The notes beneath the pieces were generated by a model. That model was given only the letters and a program-made list of their open reading frames with translations. It searched no databases and was not told the DNA's origin. The position numbers and the translations under genes are program-made. Below, piece after piece: positions 102 through 47,910 of a DNA stretch of 64,000 nt. How positions within the stretch are numbered: position 1 is the stretch's first letter; each line of letters begins with the position of its first letter. This stretch comes from Octopus sinensis (Eukaryota), in assembly GCF_006345805.1 (NCBI RefSeq), contig NC_043010.1, positions 56,296,001 to 56,360,000 of the forward strand, in the 5' to 3' direction.

Positions 102-104
<3 letters not shown>
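1..104 (+). mobile_element. 3' end of a mariner transposon (transposase C-terminus and right TIR), truncated by the window edge
   Basis: Translates as ...SNGEYFEGDK, a typical mariner C-terminus, and ends in CACCTCG-TA followed by (TA)n. Confidence 0.6.
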
Positions 105-131
<27 letters not shown>

Positions 132-135
<4 letters not shown>

Positions 136-426
136 ATCAAAATAAAAACATGATGCGAAGGATTCAGCGGTACATATGTTTCGGGCCTTTATTAGACAGA
201 TTTATAACAATGCATAATGTATGTCTGTGGCCTTCTTCAGCCGCGGCTGAAGAAGGCCACAGACATACATTATGCATTGTTATAAATCTGTCTAATAAAG
301 GCCCGAAACATATGTACCGCTGAATCCTTCGCATCATGTTTTTATTTTGATCAATTTACTCCACCACCTACACCACCAAACGGTATACACAGGTGCTTAT
401 AATTATCAAGTACTCACCCCGAATTT

Positions 427-430
<4 letters not shown>
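132..430. mobile_element. Short palindromic Penelope-like (pseudo-LTR-type) unit: 224-bp spacerless inverted repeat (132-355) plus an unpaired tail
   Basis: The arms 132-243 and 244-355 are reverse complements centred on CAGCCG|CGGCTG. The unit sits within (TA)n and contains hammerhead cores. Confidence 0.7.
243..320 (+). ncRNA. Type-I hammerhead ribozyme motif (mirror copy on the minus strand at 167-244)
   Basis: GCGG-CTGAAGA-AGGCC..GGCCC-GAAAC-ATAT-GTA-CCGC. Stem I GCGG/CCGC, stem II GGCC/GGCC, stem III AC/GT with palindromic ATAT loop, GUA cleavage triplet. Confidence 0.75.
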
Positions 431-468
<38 letters not shown>

Positions 469-2623: not shown

Positions 2624-3252
2624 CTGCTGCTACTACTACTGCACCAACAGCAACAACAACGCCAACACTTTCTGAAGTTTATATTTTTTTCTCTTTGAAG
2701 CCCCGGCCTTTAAACCTTTAATTTCCTGATTCATTAGCAACATTAATTATTTACTTAATTATATACAAATTACAGAAATAATTGTAGAATTATTCTGATT
2801 CAGGGAAATATTTCAAATAAAGGCATTCTTTGAGCATTTCGTGCAAATATCGAGGAATTTGCTGGGGTGGACATAAATCGGGGTATATTGGGACGGGTAT
2901 AAAGTATGATTGCTGGACGGCGGTGGGGTGGGGCTTGAAATGCTGGAGTAGAGTTTGTGTCTGGTGTGTGAATGGATGGGGAAATACATGTCTGGAAGGG
3001 TTGGTGTACGTGTCGTTATACACACACAAGCACATACTCACACACACTCACAGATACACTCTCACACACACTCACTCACACACACGCATACACACACACA
3101 CTTGTCTTTGCAAACGCATGATTCCAGGTTTGATTATATTGCGCTCCACCTTGAGCCAGTGTCTTCTGCTCCACGTTGGTTTGTAGAATTCGGTGGACGA
3201 AAAGTATAAAACATTCCATTATGTGTGTGTGTGTGTGTGTGTGCGCGCGCGC

Positions 3253-3309
<57 letters not shown>

Positions 3310-3359
3310 ATATATACACGTACATACACGCACATCCATATACACGTATATGCAACGTT

Positions 3360-5063
3360 GGTAGACTCAACAGGCGTATCGATTGAGGACCCTTATCAAC
3401 AGAGTCAATTATTTGCCGAGGCTTTTTCAACTATTTTCAAACAAGATGATGGTCGTGAACCCCCTCCATTTGATAGATCGGTACCTCCAATGCTTCGATT
3501 GGTCATCACGCGGGACGAAGTCAAACGTGTTATTCAAGGCCTCGATGTCAACAAGGGTCACGGCCCTGACGGCATACACCCACGGGTTATCAAAGCGTTG
3601 GCTCCGGTCATCTGCGAGCCTTAACACGACTATTCAATATGTCATTGGCGACGGGTGTTATACCTGCAGACTGGAGAACAGCGATAATCTGCCCAATTTT
3701 CAAGAAAGGGAGCCGCGAAGACCCGCTTAACTACCGACCGGTTTCCCTTACATCAATAATCAGCAAGATGTTCGAAACCATCCTTAAGAAAAGTATGATG
3801 CTCCACCTCCTAAACACAGCCTCTATCTCTGATTCCCAACACGGTTCTCGTGCCGAAGAGATCATGCTTGACCAACTTACTAGTAATGGAAGAATTGGTG
3901 ACGCGCATCCTCGATGATAGTGATGCTGTTGACATCGTTTTATTGGACTTTGCCAAAGCTTTTGACTCGGTAAACCACCGCTTATTACTTGTCAAGCTTC
4001 AAGCATATAGTTTCCATCCGGATATTATACGATGGGTTGGTGCCTTCCTCTCAGATCGCTCCAAGTCCAAGTTAATGGTTCGCGGTCCGACGTCTCCAGT
4101 GCGAGCAGTGGCGTGCCTCAAGGTTCAGTGCTTGGACCCTTGTTGTTCTTAGTCTTCATAAATGACTTGCCCGACGACCTCACGCAACACACCCTTCTAT
4201 TTGCCGACGATATCAAACTGGTCGCTCCTCGCGGTAATATAGAGGATCTTCGTCAATGCCTCCACCAAATTTGGAAGTGGTCTAACGATTGGGACCTGTG
4301 TCTGAACGTATCAAAGTGCTGTCATCTGCCTGTCGGCTCTACTCCTGCAACTCAACTTGATTTCGAGCCGGGTCGTCTGCTGCTGGAGAGGACCGATCAG
4401 GTAAAGGACCTGGGTATCTTGGTGGATTCCTCCTTTTCGCCTTCGGCCCAGTGCGTCCATGCTGCCAATAAAGCACGCGGAATTCTGTTCTTGATTCGAC
4501 GGTCATTCGGAATGCTCACAGCAGCCATATTCCTACCACTCTATGTCACGCTGGTGAGACCCATATTGGAGTATGGGATTCAGGCCTCTTCTCCTTATCT
4601 CCTCAAAGACATACAGCATCTCGAAAGAGTCCAGAGGCTGGCTACCCGCATGGTTCATGGTCTCAAAAATTTGTCCTACGAAGAAGGCTGAGGACGCTCG
4701 ACCTTTATTCTCTTGAAAAACGCCGCCGCCGTGGTGATCTCATTCTCGCCCACAACATTATAAGCGGAAAGTGTAACCTCTCGAAAGAGCTGTTCTTCAC
4801 TCCTGCTCCAGAGCGTCGGCTGCGGGGTCATTCCGAAAAGCTCTACCTGCGACGATTTCATCTCAATCGAAGGAGAGGAGCATTCTCCGTCCGGGTTGCG
4901 GATCCGTGGAACAAGCTGCCAGACGAGATGGTGAAGATGCCGACGACCGCTTTGTTCAAAGCCTCCCTGGACCTCAAGTGGCCCGAACTCTTTACATGAA
5001 CACCACCCTGTACTTAACTCCATGTCCCCCTACATGGCCTTGCTATTTGCTTTTGAGCCAAAT

Positions 5064-5365: not shown

Positions 5366-5744
5366 GGGGTAAAAATTATTTGGCAGTCCTGGTTTAGGAC
5401 GAATGTTGATGTTATCTAGCCCCAGGAGACATCGTCTCCAGCTGCCTATACGACATGAACTGTGTCCTTATATCTTTGAACAAGGGAATATAGCCCCCCC
5501 CCCCTCAGCTCAAAACAATATCTGTGTATCGCGATTTCAGGGATGAAGAGAAATAACCCAGAAATCGTGATACACAGATATTGTTTTGAGCTGACTTGGG
5601 GTGCTAGATTCCCTTGTTCGAAAATATAAGGACACAGTTCGTGTCGTATAGCCAGCTGGAGACGATGTCTCCTGGGGCTAAATTACAGCAACATTCGTCC
5701 TAAACCAGGACTGCCATGTTATGTTGGCAAACAATCTTTACCCC
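5366..5744. mobile_element. Foldback MITE, ~380 bp, almost entirely inverted repeat
   Basis: Termini TA-GGGGTAAA...TTTACCCC-TA; the arms pair along most of their length around a short central loop at ~5540-5556. Confidence 0.85.
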
Positions 5745-9041: not shown

Positions 9042-9109
9042 TATATATATATATAATATATATATATAATATATATATATATATATAGATATATATAGCG
9101 CATGCATAT

Positions 9110-9225
9110 AAACTTCGAATGACCCGTCCTCGTTTTCTTTGTATCGTCTATCTGGATGTTTTGTTGTCCCTTTTTGTATCACCTAACTGTCCAGATGTTT
9201 TGCGTTCTTATCCCATTTTGTATTT

Positions 9226-9228
<3 letters not shown>
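9110..9228 (+). repeat. Fragment of a dispersed repeat also present at ~55930-56066 (-)
   Basis: Shared CTTCGAATG(A/T)CCCGTCCT..TTCTT(T)GT..CGTCT motif. Confidence 0.45.
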
Positions 9229-9292
<64 letters not shown>

Positions 9293-9295
<3 letters not shown>

Positions 9296-10870
9296 CATGC
9301 CCTGATAAAACCCCTCCAGATTCTCTTCCAGAGCTTTCTTGCAAATGGCAAACTGGCAAGCAAGCTGAAGGAGGGAATAATATGCCCAATCCATAAAGGG
9401 GGAAGCAGAGCAGATGCCAAAAACTATAGGCCTATCTCTCTGACTTCACACATCAGCAAAGTCATGGAAAAGATAGTCAAAAGGAAACTAATCACATTCC
9501 TTGAGGAAAATAACTTGCTGAGTGATACCCAGCATGGTTTTCGACCAGGTAGGAGCTGCCTGACCCAGCTCTTACAACATTATGACTGGGTGTTGAGGCA
9601 GTTACTCAACAAATCAAATGTGGATGTAATATACCTTGATTTTGCAAAAGCTTTTGACAAGGTGGATCATGGTATGATATGCCACAAACTGCGTGACCTC
9701 GGCATAGCTGGAAAACTTGGAGTGTGGTTAAATGACTTCCTGAAAGATAGGAGTTAGGCAGTAGTGGCTAATGGAACCACCTCTATGAACACACAAATAG
9801 TGAGTGGTGTTCCACAGGGCACTGTCTTGGGATCACTGCTTTTTATAGTGGCCCTCTCAGATATGCCCTCAAATGCCCGGATAGCCACTCTGGCAAGCTA
9901 TGCAGATGATACGAAAGTCTCACAGAAAATACAGAATCCCAGCGATGTTGCACATCTGCAACAGGAGTTGGACTCAATCTACAGATGGGCTGAGGATAAT
10001 AATATGCAATTTAATGCTGAAAAATTCCAGGCCCTGCGCTACCAGCATCCAAAACTGAATATTAAACTTACAGGATACACCGGTCCACAGGGAATTTCAA
10101 TCCCAGAGCCTAAGTATGTGAGGGACCTGGGTATCGACATGAGTGATGATACCTCTTTCCAAGTGCACATTACCAGGATGGCGGCAAAGTACAGACGACT
10201 GGCTGAATGGATCCTAAGAACATTCAGAACCAGAGATAAGGAAACTGTGATGGTCCTCTGGCGGACATTTGTCCTCAGCCGCCTGGATTACTGCTCACAG
10301 CTATGGTCACCCACCAGTGTGAGATTAACAGCGGAGCTTGAAGCAATCCAGAGAAGATTCACAAAGAAGATCGTCTCTTTGCAACAGCTCAGCTACTGGG
10401 AAAGGTTGAAACAGCTAAGATTCTACTCCCTGGAGAGAAGACGGGAGAGGTATGCAGTAATATATGTCTGGAAGATCCTGGAAGGAATTGTGCCAAATTT
10501 TGGCATTGAAAGCTACACCAATGCCAGAACGGGACGACACTGCATAGTGTCAAAGATCCCAGCAATGCCATCACGCTTCAGGACCTGTTACTGCAACAGC
10601 CTGGGTTTCAAGGGCCTACAGCTTTTTAATATTCTCCCCAAACGTCTGAGGAACTTGCGCAAAGTAGATGTAGGGTTTTTAAAATCAAAGCTGGACATCT
10701 TCTTGTCAAGAGTCCCAGATGAACCTACCTTACGGCAAGAGGTGCAAATGAGGTTAACTCTATCAAACTCCATTCTTCATCAAGTGCCACATATTGGAGG
10801 AGGCTCCTAGTAATAGCAGTGTAGCGCAGAACGGCGGTGCATCAGCATGGCCGCGGCTCTGAGCTGAAAC

Positions 10871-27290: not shown

Positions 27291-27811
27291 TGTGTGTGTG
27301 TGTGTGTGCCGCCATTATATAATGAACCTATTCAAAATCCGCCCCAACAACAACAACAACAACAACAGCAACTATTTCTTGCTTTCTTTCTTTCTCATCT
27401 CATTTCCTTTATTTTTCTTCCTCCTGTCATCACCATCACCGTCATCATCATCATCATTTCCCTCATCTTCAAAAGCTGCCCTCCCCTCCACTTCTAAAGC
27501 TTCACCAGTCCTCAAGAGAGTTAGGCCAGGCTGGAACCTATATGAGATAGATATTATGACATTCACAAGTCTAAACTCGTACAAACAATGCAAGATTAAA
27601 CTGTTGTGTCACGTGACATCCACCCTGTATCTTCATAAATTGATGCCTCTGCGGCCTTCTTGCGCGCGCGCGCACACACACACACACACTTGGCTGTACT
27701 TTGGTAGAGTCATCTTACTAATAAAAACATAGGCACTGCTTCTTAACAGGATAAACATCCAGTGTGTGCTTTTATTATAGAATAACTCAACCAAACAGAA
27801 ATAGATATATA

Positions 27812-29431
27812 CACTGGCGAAAATAAATTTAAGACCGATGATAAAAGTTCTATTTCTTACAAAATATTTTGTTACTAACACCATACAAATTATTTTTATC
27901 TTTTACACCTTATGCAGAATTTATTTCTCTTTCGAATGATGCAGACAATAACTATTTTTATACAACTTGATGAATTCTAATGCTAAGTTAATATAAACGT
28001 TTCAAATTTACCGGCAAAATTAGTTTAAGATCATGTAATATGTATGCAAATTTTTTTGCCAAAATGGGTGGTCACACAACTAGCCTAACTGCACTATATA
28101 GTGTCATAATTTAATGTTATTATACAATTGATTAATAATGGGAAAACAACGTAGCCTCAGTCCAGTCACGAGAACAAAAATCGTATTACTCCACCAGCAA
28201 AAAGTTTCCTTTTTCGAACATCAGCAAGTTACTAAAGTGCAGGAAAAAGTCTTGCGTGCAACCGTGGAAGTTATACTTGGAGATTGGTCAATATAAAGAT
28301 CGGCAAAGGACTGACGCCCCAAAACAAACGACGGCGCAGGTGGACCGTCAAATCCACCGACTTTCGGAAGGCAACCTAATGTTGACCGCCGTTGACATTT
28401 GTAAACAATTGTCCAACGAGAATGGCGTTATTTTTACACCACAAACCGCCCGCAACCGTTTGAGAGAATTTGGACTATATGGACGAACCACTAGGAAAAA
28501 GCCAATAATATCCGAAAGAAATCGACTCAAACGCCTTAATTTCGCAAAAAGCCATGCTCAATGGACTGCCAAAGATTGGTGCAGGGTCCTTTGGAGTGAG
28601 GAGTCATGCTTCTGTATATTTGGATCAGACGTTGCCCAACCGAGGAATTCCATCCGAAATGCATGAAAAAGACGACGCAAGCGGGTGGTAGGGGTGTGAT
28701 GGTGTGGGTGGCATTTAGTAGCTTTGGTGTTGGCCCTCTAGTTAAAGTTGATGGAAAGCTAAATAGTGTAGGTTATATGAATCTACTAAAGGATAATCTT
28801 GTGCCATATTTGACTCACCAAATGCCTCCGGGGGCTATTTATCAGCAGGACAATAGTCTGGTGCACAAAGCCAAAATGGTTATGGAATTATTTGATCACC
28901 ATAATATTGACGTAATCGAATGGCCTCCCCAGAGCCTGGACTTGAATCTGATCGAGAACTTGTGGAATTATGATTCCAAAAAAAGTCCATGCTAAAAAAC
29001 CATGTAATCTAAAACAATTATTCGATTATATCAATGAAATGTGGCAAAACATTCCCATAGAATTTTGTAATCACTTAGCGAATTCAATGCCGAGGCGTTG
29101 TTCTGCCGTTATTAAGAATAAAGACTACGGCACAATGTACGAATATGTATTTCGTTCTAGTTGCTCATTTTTGCTACAATCTGAAGCTTTAAATAAAATT
29201 ATAATGATACCGTCTTAAACTAATTTTGCTGGTAAATTTGAAACGCTTATATTAATTTAGCATTAGAATTCTTCAAGTTGTATAAAAATAGTAATTGTCT
29301 GCATCATTCGAAAGAGAAATAAATTCTGCATAAGATGTAAAAGATAAAAATAATTTGTATGGTGTTAGTAACAAAATATTTTGTAAGAAATAGAACTTTT
29401 ATCATCGGTCTTAAATTTATTTTTGCCACTG
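27812..29431 (+). mobile_element. Full-length decayed Tc1 DD34E element with ~220-bp TIRs
   Basis: TIRs 27812-28030 / 29213-29431 with TA flanks; VLWSEES, GGRGVMVW, YQQDN, WPPQSLDLNLIE (34 residues between D and E). Confidence 0.93.
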
Positions 29432-29494
29432 TAAATACATGTGTGTAATTGTGTGTATCTGTGTCTGTGTATGCATGTATACATATTCTCTTTC

Positions 29495-34788: not shown

Positions 34789-34819
<31 letters not shown>

Positions 34820-34840
34820 AAGAAGAAGAAGAAGAAGAAT
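34660..34840. repeat. (AAT)n-(AAG)n compound microsatellite
   Basis: Seen directly in the sequence. Confidence 0.95.
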
Positions 34841-34842
34841 AT

Positions 34843-36262
34843 ACGGTGTATACTTTCAATGCTGATATCAGAATGGATTTCGGACTGAGAAAGTGTGGTG
34901 TGTTAGTCTTGAAGAGAGGCAAAATCAAATGTATGGACGGACCGGCAAAACCGTCGGGAGAGGTTATGAAGCAGATAGAAGAGACGGGCTATAAGTACTT
35001 GGGGATTCGGGAAATGGATAAATTGATGGAGAAAGAAATGACAGAAAAATTTAAGGTGGAGTACTTGCGCAGACTGAGACTGATCCTTCAGTCGAAATTA
35101 AACGGATGGAATACGATCGAAGCTATCAACCCCTGGGCGGTTTCACTCTTTAGATATGGATCAGGGGTAATCTCATGGGCAGTAAACGAACTAAACAGCT
35201 TTGACAGAAAGACAAGGAAGTTACTAACTAGATATGGGTCACTCCACCCAAAAAGTGACACAGATAGACTCTATGTACCAAGAAAAGAGAGGGGGAAGAG
35301 GACTAATTGGATGCGAACACAGCGTTAGAAGAAAACAACATAGCATGGTATATAAAAAAACGCCACAGAGCCGCTATTATTAGAAGTAAGAAGGTCAGGA
35401 TGAAAGATTGCAAAGATAAAGCATTGTACAAGTAATTGAAAACGAATGAAACTGAAAATAGGTGGGAAAAGAAAAGAATGCATGGTCAATTTCATAGGGA
35501 TATTGAAGATAAGACAGACAGAGAAAAAAGATGGCTGTGGATGACTAAAAGTGATTTAAAACCGGAAACAGAAGCTCTAATCTGTGCTGCCCAAGAGCAA
35601 GCACTAAGAACAAACTACATAAAATACAGAATGGACAACACAGCAGAAAGTGATAAGTGCAGAATCTGTGGACATAACGGTGAAACCGTATGGCATATTA
35701 CCAGGCAAGGTACACTACTAGAATATAAAAGACGTCATAACAATATAGCCACGATTTCCATTGGACACTTTGCAACAAGTATGAACTTGACAGAGCAAAA
35801 GCGTGGTACGAACATAAACGCGAAGGTAACGTCGAAAATGATACTGCAAAGATCCTATGAGATTTTATGATTCAGTACGACCATGAGATAGAGAATAGGA
35901 AATGATGCTGGATCATGGAAATAGCATGCCCAGCTGACAACAGAGTATGCGATAAAGAAGAAAGAAAAGTTGATAGCTATGATAGGTAAGCTTGGGAGGT
36001 TAAGAATTGTGGTCGATGAAAAAGGTGGTAATAGTACCAATAATTGTCGGAGCCCTGAGAACAGTGAGTAAAAATTTTGAGAAGTACATGGAATAAATGG
36101 GGGCTGCAGTAAGAGTGAAGCACTTGCAGAAAACAGCACTGCTTGGAACTGCTCGAATACTCCGGATGATGCTCGAAAAATAAGGGGCGTTACCTTAGTT
36201 CGCTGGTAGTGAACAGCTGGTACCGCAGTACATATCCAGCATTAGAAGCTGTGCAAAGGCAA
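34843..36262 (+). mobile_element. 5'-truncated decayed R4/Dong-type LINE (family 1)
   Basis: MDFGLRKC, YKYLG, AAQEQALRTNY, CRIC...ETVWHI zinc knuckle, LQKTALLGTARILR; ends in (CAA)(TAA)n. Confidence 0.9.
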
Positions 36263-36284
36263 TAAATACAACAACAACAACAAC

Positions 36285-36317
<33 letters not shown>

Positions 36318-36319
<2 letters not shown>

Positions 36320-36436
36320 GCAAAACACTCTCAATACAGTAACCATAAGAGCATCATAACAAACCACAGCACATATCCAAGGCACACAGAGCTGCGCTCA
36401 GTAGTGAAGTGAAAGCACGATATAAAAATAAAACTA

Positions 36437-36441
<5 letters not shown>
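36318..36441 (+). mobile_element. 3'-end stub of R4/Dong family 2
   Basis: Similar to 38405-38528 and flanked by (TAA)n on both sides. Confidence 0.85.
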
Positions 36442-36476
<35 letters not shown>

Positions 36477-36559
36477 TAATAATAATAATAATAAAAATAA
36501 TAATAATAATAATATAATAATAATAATAATAATAATATAATAATAATAATAATAATAAC

Positions 36560-38528
36560 TACAGATCGACTACAGAAAGGCGTTTGATAGCATCCCCCAC
36601 ACATGGATCCTCGAAACACTAGCCATTAACAAAGTTGCGCCAACAATTATAAAATACATAGGACACCCTATGAATAAATGGCAAACAGTGCTATAGCTCC
36701 AAACAAAAGAGGGATTCATGGAAACCAAAGCCATCCCCATTAGAAGAGGAATATTCCAGGGAGACACGCTCTCTCCACTCCTTTTCTGCTTGGCACTGTC
36801 ACCTCTATCTGATATGCTAAATAGAACTGGATGCGGATATAAATGCTACAGCAAAACGATCAGCCACCTTTTATATATGGATGACCTAAAACTATACGCT
36901 ACAAATGACAAACAGCTGGAAACACTACTAAAGACAGTTCATAGATTTACCAAAGAAATAGATATGAAATTTGGATTAGAAAAATGCGCCAAAGTAACCC
37001 TGAAAAGAGGAAAACTAGTTAAGAGTAGCAACATCACACTAGATAAAACCAATGAAATAAAAGAATTAGGCCAAACTTACAAATACTTAGGAATCCATGA
37101 ACTAGATAAGACACAACATGAAAGAGAAAATAAAAAAAGAATATTATAGACGAGTTAAATCAATACTAAAAACAGAGCTCAATGCTAAAAACAAGATAAT
37201 AGGTATTAACACTTTAGCCGTCCCAGTTATAAGTTACAGCAACAATATCCTTAACTGGACACTAAATGAACTGACCAAAATAGATAGGAAAACAAGAAAA
37301 ATAATGGCAGGATCTAGGATGCATCACCCAATATCTGACATAGAAAGGCTATATATACAACGTATAGAAGGTGGTAAAGGCCTTATACAGCTGGAAAACT
37401 ACTATAAAATAACCACCATAGGACTGCAAAAATATCTACTCCAGAAGGAAGGAAAACTGATACATATAAGGCAAAACACGAGAAAAACAAAAAAACTCTT
37501 CTCAGTATTTAAGGAAGCTGACAAATACAAACAAGAAATCATACCACCTAACAAATATGAAGAAGAAGAAGAAGAAGAAGAAGAAGAAGAAGAAGAAGAA
37601 GAAGAAGAAGAAGAAGAAGAAGAAGAAGAAGAAGAAGAAGAAGAAGAAGAAGAAGAAGAAGAAGAAGAAAACCATGGTAAAACGATGGCAAGAAAAGCCC
37701 CTTCGTAGCAAATACCGGACTAAACTAAATGCAAAAGAAATAGACAAAGAAAAATCCCAGCAATGGTTGAGAAGCTCAGGACTCAAAGTAGAAACAGAGG
37801 GATTTTTAATTGCAGCACAAGACCAAAGCCTACCCACCAGAAATTACCAAAAACATGTAATGAAAAGAAATATAACAAGTAACTGCAGAATATGTGGAGG
37901 TGGACAAGAAACAATAAATCATATTATCTCTGGCTGCCCAGTCCTGGCTAAGAAGGAATATATTCACAGACACGACAGAGTTAGGACCTACATACACTGG
38001 AAGCTATGCCAACATTATGGAATAACAACAGAAAAAAGATGGTATAGGCACACACCAGAAAAGGTCACAGAAAACGAGAAAGCAACCATACTCTGGGATA
38101 TGCCGATACACACAGATAGAGAAATTAAGGCCAACAGGCCAGATATAGTTGTCAGAGATCATGAAGAAAAAAAATGCTTTCTAATTGATGTATCAATACC
38201 AGCAAATGACAACGTGTCTCTAAAAGAAATGGAGAAACTTTCAAAATACAAAGACCTGGAAATAGAGGTAACCAGAATGTGGAATCTAAAAACAGAAACA
38301 ATTCCTATCATAGTAGGTGCATTAGGCATGATAAAAAAATTTCAAATACATAACAAAAACACCAGGACTTACAAAATTGCACTACTAGGCACTGCACACA
38401 TTCTACGCAGAACACTTTCCATACAATAACCATCAGAGCATCACAACAAATCACAGCACATACCCAAGGCACACAGAGCTGCGCTCGGTAGTGAAGTGAA
38501 AGCACGCTATAAAAATAAAACTACTGAA
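36560..38528 (+). mobile_element. 5'-truncated R4/Dong-type LINE (family 2) with an internal (GAA)n expansion
   Basis: DYRKAFDS, GIFQGDTLSPLLF, YMDD, CRIC..ETINHIISGC, NRPDIV, KYKDL. Confidence 0.93.
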
Positions 38529-38529
38529 T

Positions 38530-38614
<85 letters not shown>

Positions 38615-38619
38615 TACAA

Positions 38620-39186
38620 CAACAACCACTGCGCTGATTCAGTACCAGGCAGTGGTTCTGATGCTTTTTGATCTTAACTGATTGGAAGTGTTATCACGTA
38701 CATTGTTTTGTCTTGGTCTAAAAGATGAGTTACAGCAAATATTCTGATCAATACCAAAGATTTGCTTGTCAGTTGTTTGACCTTAACCAGTTGAACATGT
38801 CCCTTAGTGGCTGACGATACGTGTCTCTCTGATCACGAGCAGAACTAGTGGAGGAACATCATAGCCATGTATTGAGAGGAATCCTTTGGGATTTGAATAA
38901 TTAATCTTTGCAAATATGGGTGTTTCGTTTATCATCCTTAAACAAACCTTAATCAGGGACCTTTTGAGTGGGATGGGCTGCTCGACCTGAAGAAAATTCC
39001 AGCTAGGCCCCCACCTGCAAGGTCATGCGCTGTTTATCTTGATATGAGATCACCATGTCGTGCACCTATGGTTGTGATGCATGTGCCTGGTGTGCTCTTA
39101 TCAGACGGGTAGTCATGATGGGTATACTGGGTTTCGTATATTTGTACCCCAGTGTCACTTTGATAGCATATTTTACTCTCTCACTC

Positions 39187-39187
<1 letters not shown>
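38620..39187 (+). mobile_element. Non-coding ~570-bp insert between (TAA)n tracts; probable non-autonomous retroelement
   Basis: No ORF; sits in the same (TAA)n target as the neighbouring Dong elements and ends CTCTCACTC-(AAT)n. Confidence 0.5.
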
Positions 39188-39252
<65 letters not shown>

Positions 39253-39254
<2 letters not shown>

Positions 39255-42200
39255 AAACCTACATAAACTGGAGACAGAAACACCCTGAAGCAAGACCCTA
39301 CACAGACAGTAACAAATTTGCCAACGTCAGAAGAAACATTATAAAAAAAAAATACTGACTGAAGTAGAGATTGACCAAATTAGACAAGCAGTAACGGATA
39401 GAATGAACGAAGCTGCAGCTAGAGAAGATAATACAGAGGAAATAATTATAGACCAGCTCAGAGCTAATACAAACGAAGTAAGGATTGAAAGAGTTAGTAT
39501 AAGTGATAGGCAAAGTGAAATACTCACTGAACCAATCATAAACACTAAGACAGATGAACATCAAATAGATGAAGAAAGTCACACAAATATTGACCCGACA
39601 GAACTACATGAGCTAAAACGTCAAATCATGATTGAATGGCTGAAAATTAAAGAAACCAGTATGGATGAACGTGATTCACTCCCTAAAATCCGCAAATCTA
39701 ACCAAAACATGAAAATAATTGGTAAAATCCGGCTTGCACTTAAGGATATAATTTCAGCTAATGATGTTGATATCACAGATCTCAACCACCTATACTATGC
39801 ATCCGCGAAAATCTCAACGATCCTATGTGGTGAAAAGATTAGAAAACGGCAACATTTCCACAAAAAGCCTTCTTGGCAAGAGCGTTTGCAACAACAAATT
39901 AAACTATTTAGATCTGACATTGAATATTTGAAAAACCTTAAGGTTCATAAGACTACCAAACCTGCAAAACCCCAAAAACTAATGAAAAAATATAATATGA
40001 AAACTATACTTGATATTGATGCCACCATAGAAACCATCAAGCAAAAGGTATCTGCTAAAGCTACCCGCATAGCGAGGTATGAAAAGCGTATTAGATTCTT
40101 CAGGGACAACATGTTCAAAAATAACCCCAAACATTTTTACAGGAAGATAGGAAAAACAACAGTTACTGTAAAGTCTGTACCATCAAAAGAAGAAGTGCAG
40201 GGATTTGGGAATAAAATTTGGGCAGAAGAAAAAACACACAGCGAAAAGGCCCCCTGGATTGATAGAATATCTAAAGAACTGGACTCCTTAGAAGAGCAAA
40301 AGTGGGAGGGTGTCAAGGTAGAAGATATAAGATCTGCTCTCAGGAGGTCAAGCAATGGAAGTCTCCAGGAAAGGATAAAATCCCTAACTTTTGGTTGAAT
40401 GCCTTCCCAGAGAGCCATGAACTGCTAACAGAACTTTACAATGATGTTTTGCAACACCCTAGTAGGATGCCTCCTTGGCTAGTTAATGGGTTAACATTCC
40501 TGCTTCCAAAAAGTGAAGAAACAAATGAACCCAAAAACTATAGACCCATAACCTGCTTAACAACTATGTATAAAACACTAACATCTGTCCTGACGGATAT
40601 ACCTATAGTTTTTTGACAGACAGCAGCATATTCCCTAATGAACAGAAAGGATGTAAACGTGGATCCTACGGCTGTAAAGATCAACTACTCATCATAAGAT
40701 GATCTTAGAAGATTGTCACAAACGACACAAAAACTTATCAATAGCCTGGATAGACTATAAAAAGGCTTTTGATAGCCTACCACATAGCTGGATTAATAAA
40801 TGCCTAGAAATGTATAAGATAGCACCTGCTCTGCGAAACTTTTTGTCTGTAAGTATGAGATCATGGAGAACCACACTAACTTTGAACAGTGACAATGAAT
40901 CTCTAAATGCTGGTGATGTAAAAAATTCATGTAGCATTTTCCAGGGTGACTCACTATCACCGCTCCTCTTCTGTTTAGCCTTAATACCTCTCTCAAAACT
41001 GCTCAATGACGCGCAGTACGGATATAAAATGTTTGATAAAAATATAAATCATCTCATTTACATGGATGATTTTTAAAGCTCTTTGCAAAAAATGACCAAC
41101 AACTCAAGGCTTACTAGCGATTGTCAAACAATTCAGTGATGACATCAGAATGCAATTTGGCCTCGATAAGTGCGCAAAAGCTACCTTTATCAAAGGAAAA
41201 ATGACAGAAACATCTAACGTTAACCTTACCAGCAGAATGTCATAAAAGAATTAGACCCAGCAGAGAACTACAAGTATCTAGGGGTAATTGAAGGAGAGGA
41301 ATAAGGCATTCAGAGATGAAGGAAAGGATTAGGAGAGAATGCTATCGCAGAGTAGAGCAATACTCAAGACAGAGCTGAATGCGAGAAACAGGATCGAAGC
41401 GATCAATGCATTAGCCATACCAGTCGTGACTTACAGTTTCAATATCGTTAACTGGTCAATTACTGAAATATGTAATCTTGACAGAAAAAATACGAAAACT
41501 GTTGACAATGCATAGAATGCACCACCCTAAGGCAGATACAGAACGACTTTATCTGCCAAGAAAAGAGGGAGGCCGTGGACTTTTACAACTGGCAATAACA
41601 ATGAAGATTGCTACAATTGGCCTAGACACCTACCTGAAAAACTCTGAGGACTGGATGTTAAAACTTGTCTCAAAACATGAAAACAAGAAAGCATCATACT
41701 CAGTAACAAAACAGGCAAAGGAATATCTAAGTGAATTCCGAAGATGACAAATTTCGGAATTAGAGATAGACACACAAGAAACAGGCACAGAAAAAGCTAA
41801 GCGCATGAAAACTCGTGCTAAATCTGCGGCCTTAGATATTCTGAATGATAAATGGCAAGAAAAACCTCTCTATGGCAAATACCCAAAGAGAGCAAATAAT
41901 GCAGATGTTGACAAAGCCCTGATCCATCAATGGCTAATGGCATCTGGCTTAAAATCTGAAACAGAGGGGTTTATCATAGCAGCTCAAGATCAATGCCTAC
42001 CAACAAGAAACTACCAGGCCAACATATTAAAGATCAGAAGCAGTCCAACGTGTCGTGTATGCAAGCAACAAAATGAAACCATTGACCATGTTGTCTCCAA
42101 GTGCAGTCTTCTAGCGCCTACAGAGTATCTCAACAGGCACGATAGAGCTGCACAATATATTCACTGGGTAATCTGTAAAAACCTGGATTTGCCCCATGAA

Positions 42201-42826
42201 AAAAACTGGTGGGAACACAAACCACCCCCAGTGCTTGAAAATGACCACATCTCACTCCTCTGGAACTTCACCATTCAAACTGACAGAAAGATAGATGCAA
42301 ATAGGCCAGACATCATATTGAAAGACTTCAAACAAAGAACATGCCTCCTCATTGATATGACTGTCCCAATCGATATAAACGTATCTGTCAAGACCTACCA
42401 AAAACTGAGCAAATATAAAGATCTTGAAATAGAAATCAGCAAAATGTGGAACCTGAAGACTAAAATAATACCTGTTGTCATAGGTGCCCTGGGAATGATA
42501 GCAAAAGGGGCTGATAGCTACCTAACTCAGATACCAGGAAACCCAAAAATGGCAGAAATTCAAAAGATAGTGCTCATGGGAACTGCTCATATCCTACGCA
42601 AAATACTTTCTATGTAATCTCAAGGTTTAAAACAAACATAATTTTCGGTTTAAAAAAAAAAAAAAAAACTTTTTTTAGACATTCATTAGTACAACACCCC
42701 CACCCCCCCAAATATATGGCACACTAGGCATAACAACAACATGAACTTCCAACCCTGTTGTCTCTTGAGGTCTCTGGGTGAGACTTGGAGCCAACTTGTA
42801 CAAATATAAAGCAAAAGTCAAACATA

Positions 42827-43056: not shown

Positions 43057-43351
43057 ATAGTATTTTATAAGCTTAAAGCTTATGAGCGATCGCCACGCAG
43101 CGACTAAAGAAAACAGTCTAATAATGAGGCATATAAACCTACGCAAATCCACAGCCCTTTTTTTTTCGCGATAAGAATACTAGTGTAATGGTAGCATTCT
43201 TCTCGCGAAAACAAGGAGGTGCGTGTTCGAGTCCCACGCCTACGGGAAAATCTACTTTTTCCGACGAGGGATTATATGCCCCATTATTAGACAATTTTCT
43301 TTAGTCCCTGCGCGGTGATCGCTTATAAGCTTTAAGCTTATAAAATACTAT
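43057..43351. mobile_element. TIR element (~84-bp arms) enclosing a tRNA-like Pol III A/B-box cassette
   Basis: TAGTATTTTATAAGCTTAAAGCTTAT... / ...ATAAGCTTTAAGCTTATAAAATACTA; internal TAGTGTAATGGTAGC and GTTCGAGTCCC. Confidence 0.75.
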
Positions 43352-47544: not shown

Positions 47545-47910
47545 CAATAAATTAATAGTAATGGTAAGACAACAAAAGAATGAGACCTCGATATTATACA
47601 AATAGAGGAATTTATTTGTAATATGTGACAATTATTCGGTTGGCATGATAAAACTCCGAGTTTCGGATGTCGGGGCAGAAACCTGCACCGGCATCGCTTC
47701 AGTTATCGAGGCAATTCTTCGATAACTGAAGAGATGCCGGTGCCTGTTTCCGCCCCGACATTCGAAACTCGGAGTTTTATCATGGCAACCAAATATTATA
47801 TTACAAATATATATATTAATAGTAATGGTAAGACAATAAATGAATGAATGCGACCTCGACATTATGTAAATAGAGGAATTTATCTGTAATATATGTGACA
47901 ATTGTATTAC
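47545..47910. mobile_element. Palindromic hammerhead-bearing Penelope-like unit with a duplicated tail
   Basis: IR ~47635-47709 / 47719-47795; the tail at 47551-47632 is repeated directly at 47817-47905. Confidence 0.7.
47721..47781 (+). ncRNA. Type-I hammerhead motif (inverted copy on the minus strand at 47647-47707)
   Basis: GATAA-CTGAAGA-GATGCCGG..CCGACATTC-GAAAC-TCGGA-GTT-TTATC; perfect stem I GATAA/TTATC. Confidence 0.72.

Follow-up and report, generated by a model that had tools for sequence, protein, structure and literature searches.

The insert at positions 132-428 of the window (the whole 64-kb stretch of DNA analysed here) very probably derives from a recent insertion of a Penelope-like element (PLE), or of a non-coding derivative moved by PLE enzymes, that is heavily truncated at its 5' end and is present as a direct copy and a head-to-head inverted copy. 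It is 297 bases in length and is flanked by two (TA)n tracts. A perfect palindrome makes up only part of it. The features of PLE insertions that are present are a hammerhead near the 3' end, a head-to-head inverted 5'-truncated copy with a palindrome at the junction, a tail on one side only, and a (TA)n target. The surrounding DNA is of animal type, appears similar to that of octopuses, is rich in microsatellites, and contains LINE reverse transcriptases and Tc1-type transposases in decayed form.

Structure of the insert and of its hammerhead motifs

The two arms of the palindrome are exact reverse complements of 112 nucleotides each, with no spacer, for a total of 224 bases (Table 1). The next-longest perfect palindrome in the 64-kb window has an arm of 23 nucleotides and is a microsatellite. 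Five other perfect palindromes with arms of at least 12 nucleotides exist in the whole window, and all are microsatellites with no more than 23 nucleotides per arm. A preliminary description of this DNA had reported a perfect 224-bp spacerless palindrome of two head-to-head hammerheads with its axis at helix I. The arms and both motifs were verified, and the axis lies within the CGCG at the 5' edge of helix I.

Because the palindrome directly follows a (TA)n tract (103-133) and a second tract lies at 430-465, an insert larger than the palindrome was suspected. The boundaries first given (132-355) are correct for the palindrome and too short for the unit, as the repeat runs past the palindrome on the right side only, to position 428. 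The earlier description mentions neither the tail on one side nor the (TA)n target nor a link to PLEs. The insert is asymmetric by 73 nucleotides and its flanks are not mirror images. Symmetry ends at 355, a natural end of the repeat family on (AT)n. No target-site duplication is readable, the target being a (TA)n microsatellite, and no second copy of the palindrome was found within the window.

Table 1. Features of the insert and of its target (window positions).
Feature	Positions	Strand	Basis or remark
Left part of the (TA)n target	103-131		Tract shares 2 nt (132-133) with the end of the arm
Tailless inverted copy of the element 3' end, 5'-truncated, with a minus-strand hammerhead motif	132-243	-	Perfect reverse complement of 244-355; family copies recurrently end at 355 on (AT)n
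Native self-complementary CGCG containing the symmetry axis	242-245		Family match begins at 242; loose ends before 242/243 in at least 21 contigs
Type I hammerhead motif, PLE form	243-320	+	Comparison with portions of PMC4209133 and of File S2 of PMC8557442
Direct copy of the element 3' end	244-355	+	Arm comparison and family contigs
One-sided 73-nt tail with AC-rich start, part of the repeat family	356-428	+	Contig cover in four of four runs; 428 is the other position where family copies recurrently end on (AT)n
Right part of the (TA)n target, preceded by two additional T (429-430)	430-465		Sequence

Each strand carries a type I hammerhead core (C3 U4 G5 A6 N7 G8 A9, G12 A13 A14 A15.1, and U16.1 H17) together with helices I-III. 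In plus-strand numbering, the core is composed of CUGAAGA at 247-253, GAAA at 305-308, U315, and A316, with a predicted cut 3' of position 316. Helix I has 4 bp (243-246/317-320). Helix II (255-258/300-303) has an unpaired A254 and C304 at its base and a 41-nucleotide insert (259-299) that is able to lengthen the helix by 5 bp. Helix III has 2 bp (308-309/314-315), is closed by ATAT, and lies within a self-complementary 8-mer (308-315). At 10.1-11.1, the lowest-energy register is A.C (-7.9). The alternative register (-4.5), with an extra A, a G-C pair, and one bulge, agrees with the PLE hammerhead consensus.

A structure descriptor consisting of the core and the three helices identifies three sites in the window, whereas 60 shuffled windows had 0.03 each on average. 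None of 20,000 shuffled arms contained a descriptor site. Rfam gave no match at the gathering score in the whole window; at E<=10, positions 1-600 gave 55 matches, none of them to a hammerhead, which consist of hairpin and microsatellite noise. The missing match is likely due to the 41-nucleotide insert and the minimal helices.

The A-C mismatch at 10.1-11.1 and an insert of about 40 nucleotides in stem II had been pointed out earlier, and both are confirmed here. The mismatch is not a lesion of the present copy, since no other letter reaches 5% at 254 or 304 across the family and a mismatch at this place is common in published PLE hammerheads. The loop-II insert was also considered as an intron and rejected, as inspection by eye located no GT...AG ends on either strand. 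It contains a TATAAA (281) about 29 nucleotides before the CA at 309-310. An AATAAA (294) lies about 17 nucleotides before the predicted cut, and a U-rich run is present at 337-349. Promoter and polyadenylation signals flanking the cleavage site are one possible reading of these motifs; the other is chance, the sequence being AT-rich.

The repeat family and a second fold-back pair

Twenty of the 24 listed public sequencing runs (9 studies and 4 coded organisms) contain 0.63-0.75 of 24 sampled words from positions 60-420. None of the 24 is recorded as RNA. Contigs of four runs (X1, X2, X5, and X9), which need not derive from the source animal, were aligned to positions 226-429. The aligned contigs number 1857, 371, 60, and 2, respectively, and together they cover 240-428. 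The repeat family is high-copy. The locus consists of the last 187 nucleotides of a high-copy element of greater length, the first 112 of which are also present as an inverted copy.

The ends of the family matches can be sorted by position. Among the 18 loose-end entries listed of 56, at least 21 contigs have non-mirrored sequence upstream of 242/243, and all four runs are represented among them. Among the listed entries, (AT)n or (TA)n is present behind 351 in at least 6 contigs, 355 in at least 7, 358 in at least 4, and 428 in at least 12 (X1), and (TA)n-type sequence lies behind at least 29 contig ends in all. Other listed ends fall behind 343 (1 contig), 348 (4), 376 (1), and 428 (1), and before 269 (3) and 301 (5). 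The family has two recurrent 3' ends, 351-358 and 428, and the hammerhead motif at 243-320 lies 112 and 185 nucleotides from them. In X1, joints of 411 to 368 and 416 to 365 exist within the tail (365-416); in some copies the tail may have been tandemly duplicated or inverted.

Only positions 289 and 388 vary by more than 5% in the family, so A254 and C304 represent the family majority. Both arms have T at position 289, where the other allele makes up 26-35% of the summed depth; this agreement is too weak to choose a mechanism. One 372-nucleotide contig is identical over 242-428 and continues for 67 nucleotides upstream and 118 nucleotides downstream. It comes from the run of organism D, which has only two low-depth contigs (depth 5-7). 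The contig may be carry-over, diet, or recent transfer, and organism D is not counted as a host. Its length would fit a retrozyme-sized unit.

The insert has no start codon that leads into a long open frame. The open frame at 299-427 (43 amino acids) has no Pfam match and no homologue among longer proteins, a weak test, or among 1.84 billion representatives. A Pfam scan of 150 window frames (143 of 257 filtered frames plus 7 hand-picked) gave only RT, zf-RVT, and Tc1-type matches, with no GIY-YIG domain and no host gene. No RT or GIY-YIG frame could be tied to the repeat family. An exact 28-nucleotide pattern has no occurrence in metagenomes, and a gapped core pattern has none in viral contigs. 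The gapped pattern gave 13 loci in metagenomes, and all 13 were dropped as chance (GC 0.54-0.72, no helix I/III context, and no blastn similarity). No description of the family was found in the literature searched or in the parts of PLE supplements covered by motif searches.

A second, older fold-back pair is located at approximately 47546-47815 and is unrelated in sequence. It holds the third descriptor site (47726) and contains two head-to-head hammerhead motifs with a Hydra-type helix III. It has a 5-nucleotide central loop, with the centre 8 nucleotides upstream of helix I, and a one-sided tail of about 60 nucleotides that runs into (TA)n. The arms are diverged (83% blastn identity including gaps), and one arm has a core change. 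In both fold-back families of the window, the turning point is at most about 8 nucleotides from helix I. A second pair with the same layout and diverged arms indicates that such stubs are routine in this genome and that their arms decay and are not kept identical. Directly after this pair is a third partial copy of its tail (47811-47903).

Other elements were also identified in the window. Two small MITE-like elements (5372-5725 and 43057-43351) have terminal inverted repeats of 128 and 83 nucleotides, respectively, both at 90%, and no hammerhead core. A Tc1-type element (27806-29437) has 225-nucleotide terminal inverted repeats at 96% with a broken transposase between them. Broken LINE reverse transcriptase frames (RVT_1, zf-RVT) are present at 3187-4999, 9089-10810, and 34792-42617, several of them split by trinucleotide repeats.

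Positions 226-239 have no contig cover in four of four runs, a weak result because contigs drop rare branches, and the fold-back junction is therefore unconfirmed by outside contigs. The zero depth would fit a junction created during assembly or library preparation from one genuine repeat copy. The locus lies 131 nucleotides from the window edge, and perfect spacerless palindromes are a known class of artefact. Such an origin is nevertheless very unlikely. The symmetry stops at a natural family end on (AT)n with unmirrored flanks, an older pair of the same layout with diverged arms exists in the same window, and a single-locus branch of about 13 words in so deep a repeat would likely be pruned from contigs of runs that need not be from the source animal.

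The palindrome is small, perfect, without an ORF, and has defined ends, as would suit a MITE-like or self-propagating two-ribozyme element, but it is most improbable that the palindrome itself is mobile, given that other copies have non-mirrored sequence before 242 and reach beyond 355 and beyond 428, that the insert is asymmetric, and that the window holds no second copy.

RNA folding and age of the arms

The RNA of the full insert is predicted to fold as a 110-bp hairpin with a free energy of -205 / -214 kcal/mol, while the isolated hammerhead motif has a value of -10.7. Within the full insert, the predicted pair probability is below 1e-50 for the hammerhead and 0.999 for the hairpin. Self-cleavage at this locus is predicted to be unlikely because the hairpin is far more stable than the ribozyme fold (about -200 versus -11 kcal/mol), which would leave the hammerheads locked in the hairpin. 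It had been proposed that a transcript self-cleaves or folds into dsRNA. The predicted probabilities leave no true choice between the two, and the antisense arm is transcribed first on either strand. A double hammerhead is predicted at -33.2 kcal/mol, compared with -21.4 kcal/mol for two monomers. As helix III gains by a partner RNA, the ribozyme of the parent element likely works, if at all, as a dimer.

These values also bear on a reading in which the locus is maintained as a switch between self-cleavage and dsRNA, with the arms kept identical by conversion. The core, the three helices, and the arm identity are all intact, and a through-transcript would yield long dsRNA. Such a function is highly unlikely in view of the vanishing pair probability of the hammerhead in the full insert and the dependence of helix III on a partner RNA. 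The intactness is explained by identity to the family majority, and decay is evident in the older pair, one arm of which is altered in the core.

Zero differences over the 112-nucleotide arms bound the age of the insert at less than about 3.7 Myr (95%), using the octopus neutral rate quoted in PMC13282606, a bound that applies only if the host is indeed an octopus. The young insertion suggested earlier fits this bound. Ongoing arm-to-arm conversion, suggested with it, is unnecessary; the arm identity requires only youth, and the arms of the other fold-back pair in the window have diverged.

Comparison with Penelope-like elements and route of insertion

According to Craig et al. (2021, PMC8557442), a 5'-truncated copy in inverted orientation adjoins the PLE 5' end, the tail measures 30-40 bp and is frequently confined to one end, and targets are of the (TA)n type. 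Abundant PLE head-to-head inverted repeats with palindromes at the junction are described by Arkhipova et al. (2013, PMC3846280) and are read there as self-priming. Insertions of endonuclease-bearing PLEs, as presented in PMC3846280 and in Fig. 2 of PMC8557442, share with the present locus the inverted copy, the junction palindrome, the one-sided tail, and a hammerhead about 100-200 nucleotides from the 3' end. Unlike them, the present locus has only the terminal 187 nucleotides, no ORF, and no readable target-site duplication. Its tail is about twice the length given for described PLE insertions in PMC8557442. Opposite-strand PLE hammerhead pairs 100-700 bp apart are reported by Cervera and De la Pena (PMC4209133), and Penelope-13_HM is tabulated in PMC8557442 with a hammerhead on each strand and a (TA)n preference.

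The hammerhead motif can be compared with those of Hydra-clade and other (TA)n-targeting PLEs in PMC8557442. Common to both are the (TA)n target, a helix I of few base pairs, one additional base following CUGANGA, an often mismatched base of helix II, and self-complementarity of helix III. The mismatch is present in 17 of 34 rows of the supplement, as counted by eye. PLE hammerheads in PMC4209133 likewise have a palindromic helix III and an extra base after A9, with low monomer activity. Loop II is 41 nucleotides here, whereas it is under 10-11 nucleotides in the Hydra rows of PMC8557442. Assignment to a clade would need the protein of the parent. Loops of 29-35 nucleotides are given there for two spike-moss elements (PLE-X1). 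Hydra-1_Obim and Naiad_Ovul ("HHR_half_core") were rejected as the parent because their sequences differ, over its start in the case of Naiad_Ovul. In the portions of the PMC8557442 supplement covered by motif searches, no match to the repeat family was located.

Poseidon PAc of Anolis (PMC11167929) also has two recurrent 3' ends bounding a tail, an AT-rich target, an AC-rich stretch near an end, and a hammerhead in the terminal repeat. In contrast, the PAc ORF starts in helix II, and no start codon of a long frame was found here. Frangieh et al. (2024, PMC11167929) report that two RT start sites delimit the tail in AT-rich targets and that both target strands are cut and extended. The PAc hammerhead is described in the same paper as protein-assisted and as not required for insertion in vitro.

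Animal non-LTR retrozymes (Cervera and De la Pena 2020, PMC7229834; Li et al. 2026, 10.64898/2026.07.22.740005) are also short, non-coding, and high-copy, with a type I hammerhead and a weak palindromic helix III, and are argued in these papers to be PLE-derived. They are defined by head-to-tail tandem units and abundant circular RNA, whereas the present copies are head-to-head, and no head-to-tail tandem hammerhead unit was found at the locus. A non-coding, retrozyme-like parent is possible. For squid, PMC6962438 gives counts of hammerhead matches. The locus is otherwise most likely an ordinary PLE-type stub that departs from published examples in the 73-nucleotide tail and the 41-nucleotide loop-II insert.

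Within the PLE reading, a fold-back route that starts at 428, turns at CGCG, and is resolved at 355 is modestly favoured. An endonuclease would nick the (TA)n target. Reverse transcription would then be primed at the far end (428) and would stop early, at about 242. Priming would rely on 2-3 nucleotides of AT/TA microhomology; such microhomology is seen at 351, 355, and 358, and the element continues with ATA after 428. The new strand would turn back at CGCG and be copied, and the intermediate would be resolved at the near end (355), leaving the tail on one side only. The hammerheads would be passengers from the terminal repeat of the parent, and a read-through transcript would form the 110-bp hairpin without cleavage.

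Since a simple hairpin can scarcely turn with no loop on 2 nucleotides, twin priming from the two start sites with annealing at CGCG stays a live alternative, tentatively held and somewhat short of probable. A further and rather unlikely reading involves a dimeric PLE particle. Helix III would pair two template RNAs as a double hammerhead, and cDNAs started from 355 and 428 on opposite nicks would stop at the 5' edge of helix I and join via CGCG. If this were true, the hammerhead would serve as an RNA dimerisation and stop signal for integration and not mainly as a nuclease.

Read as a fold-back PLE stub, the locus is a clean example of a known integration by-product, from a family that was not found described, and in itself it matters little. 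Fold-back stubs of this kind would supply long dsRNA if transcribed. The family is young and high-copy, with two sharp ends and short stubs, and its centres, ends, and arm differences can be counted genome-wide. Such data bear on how PLEs make the inverted copy and on what PLE hammerheads do.
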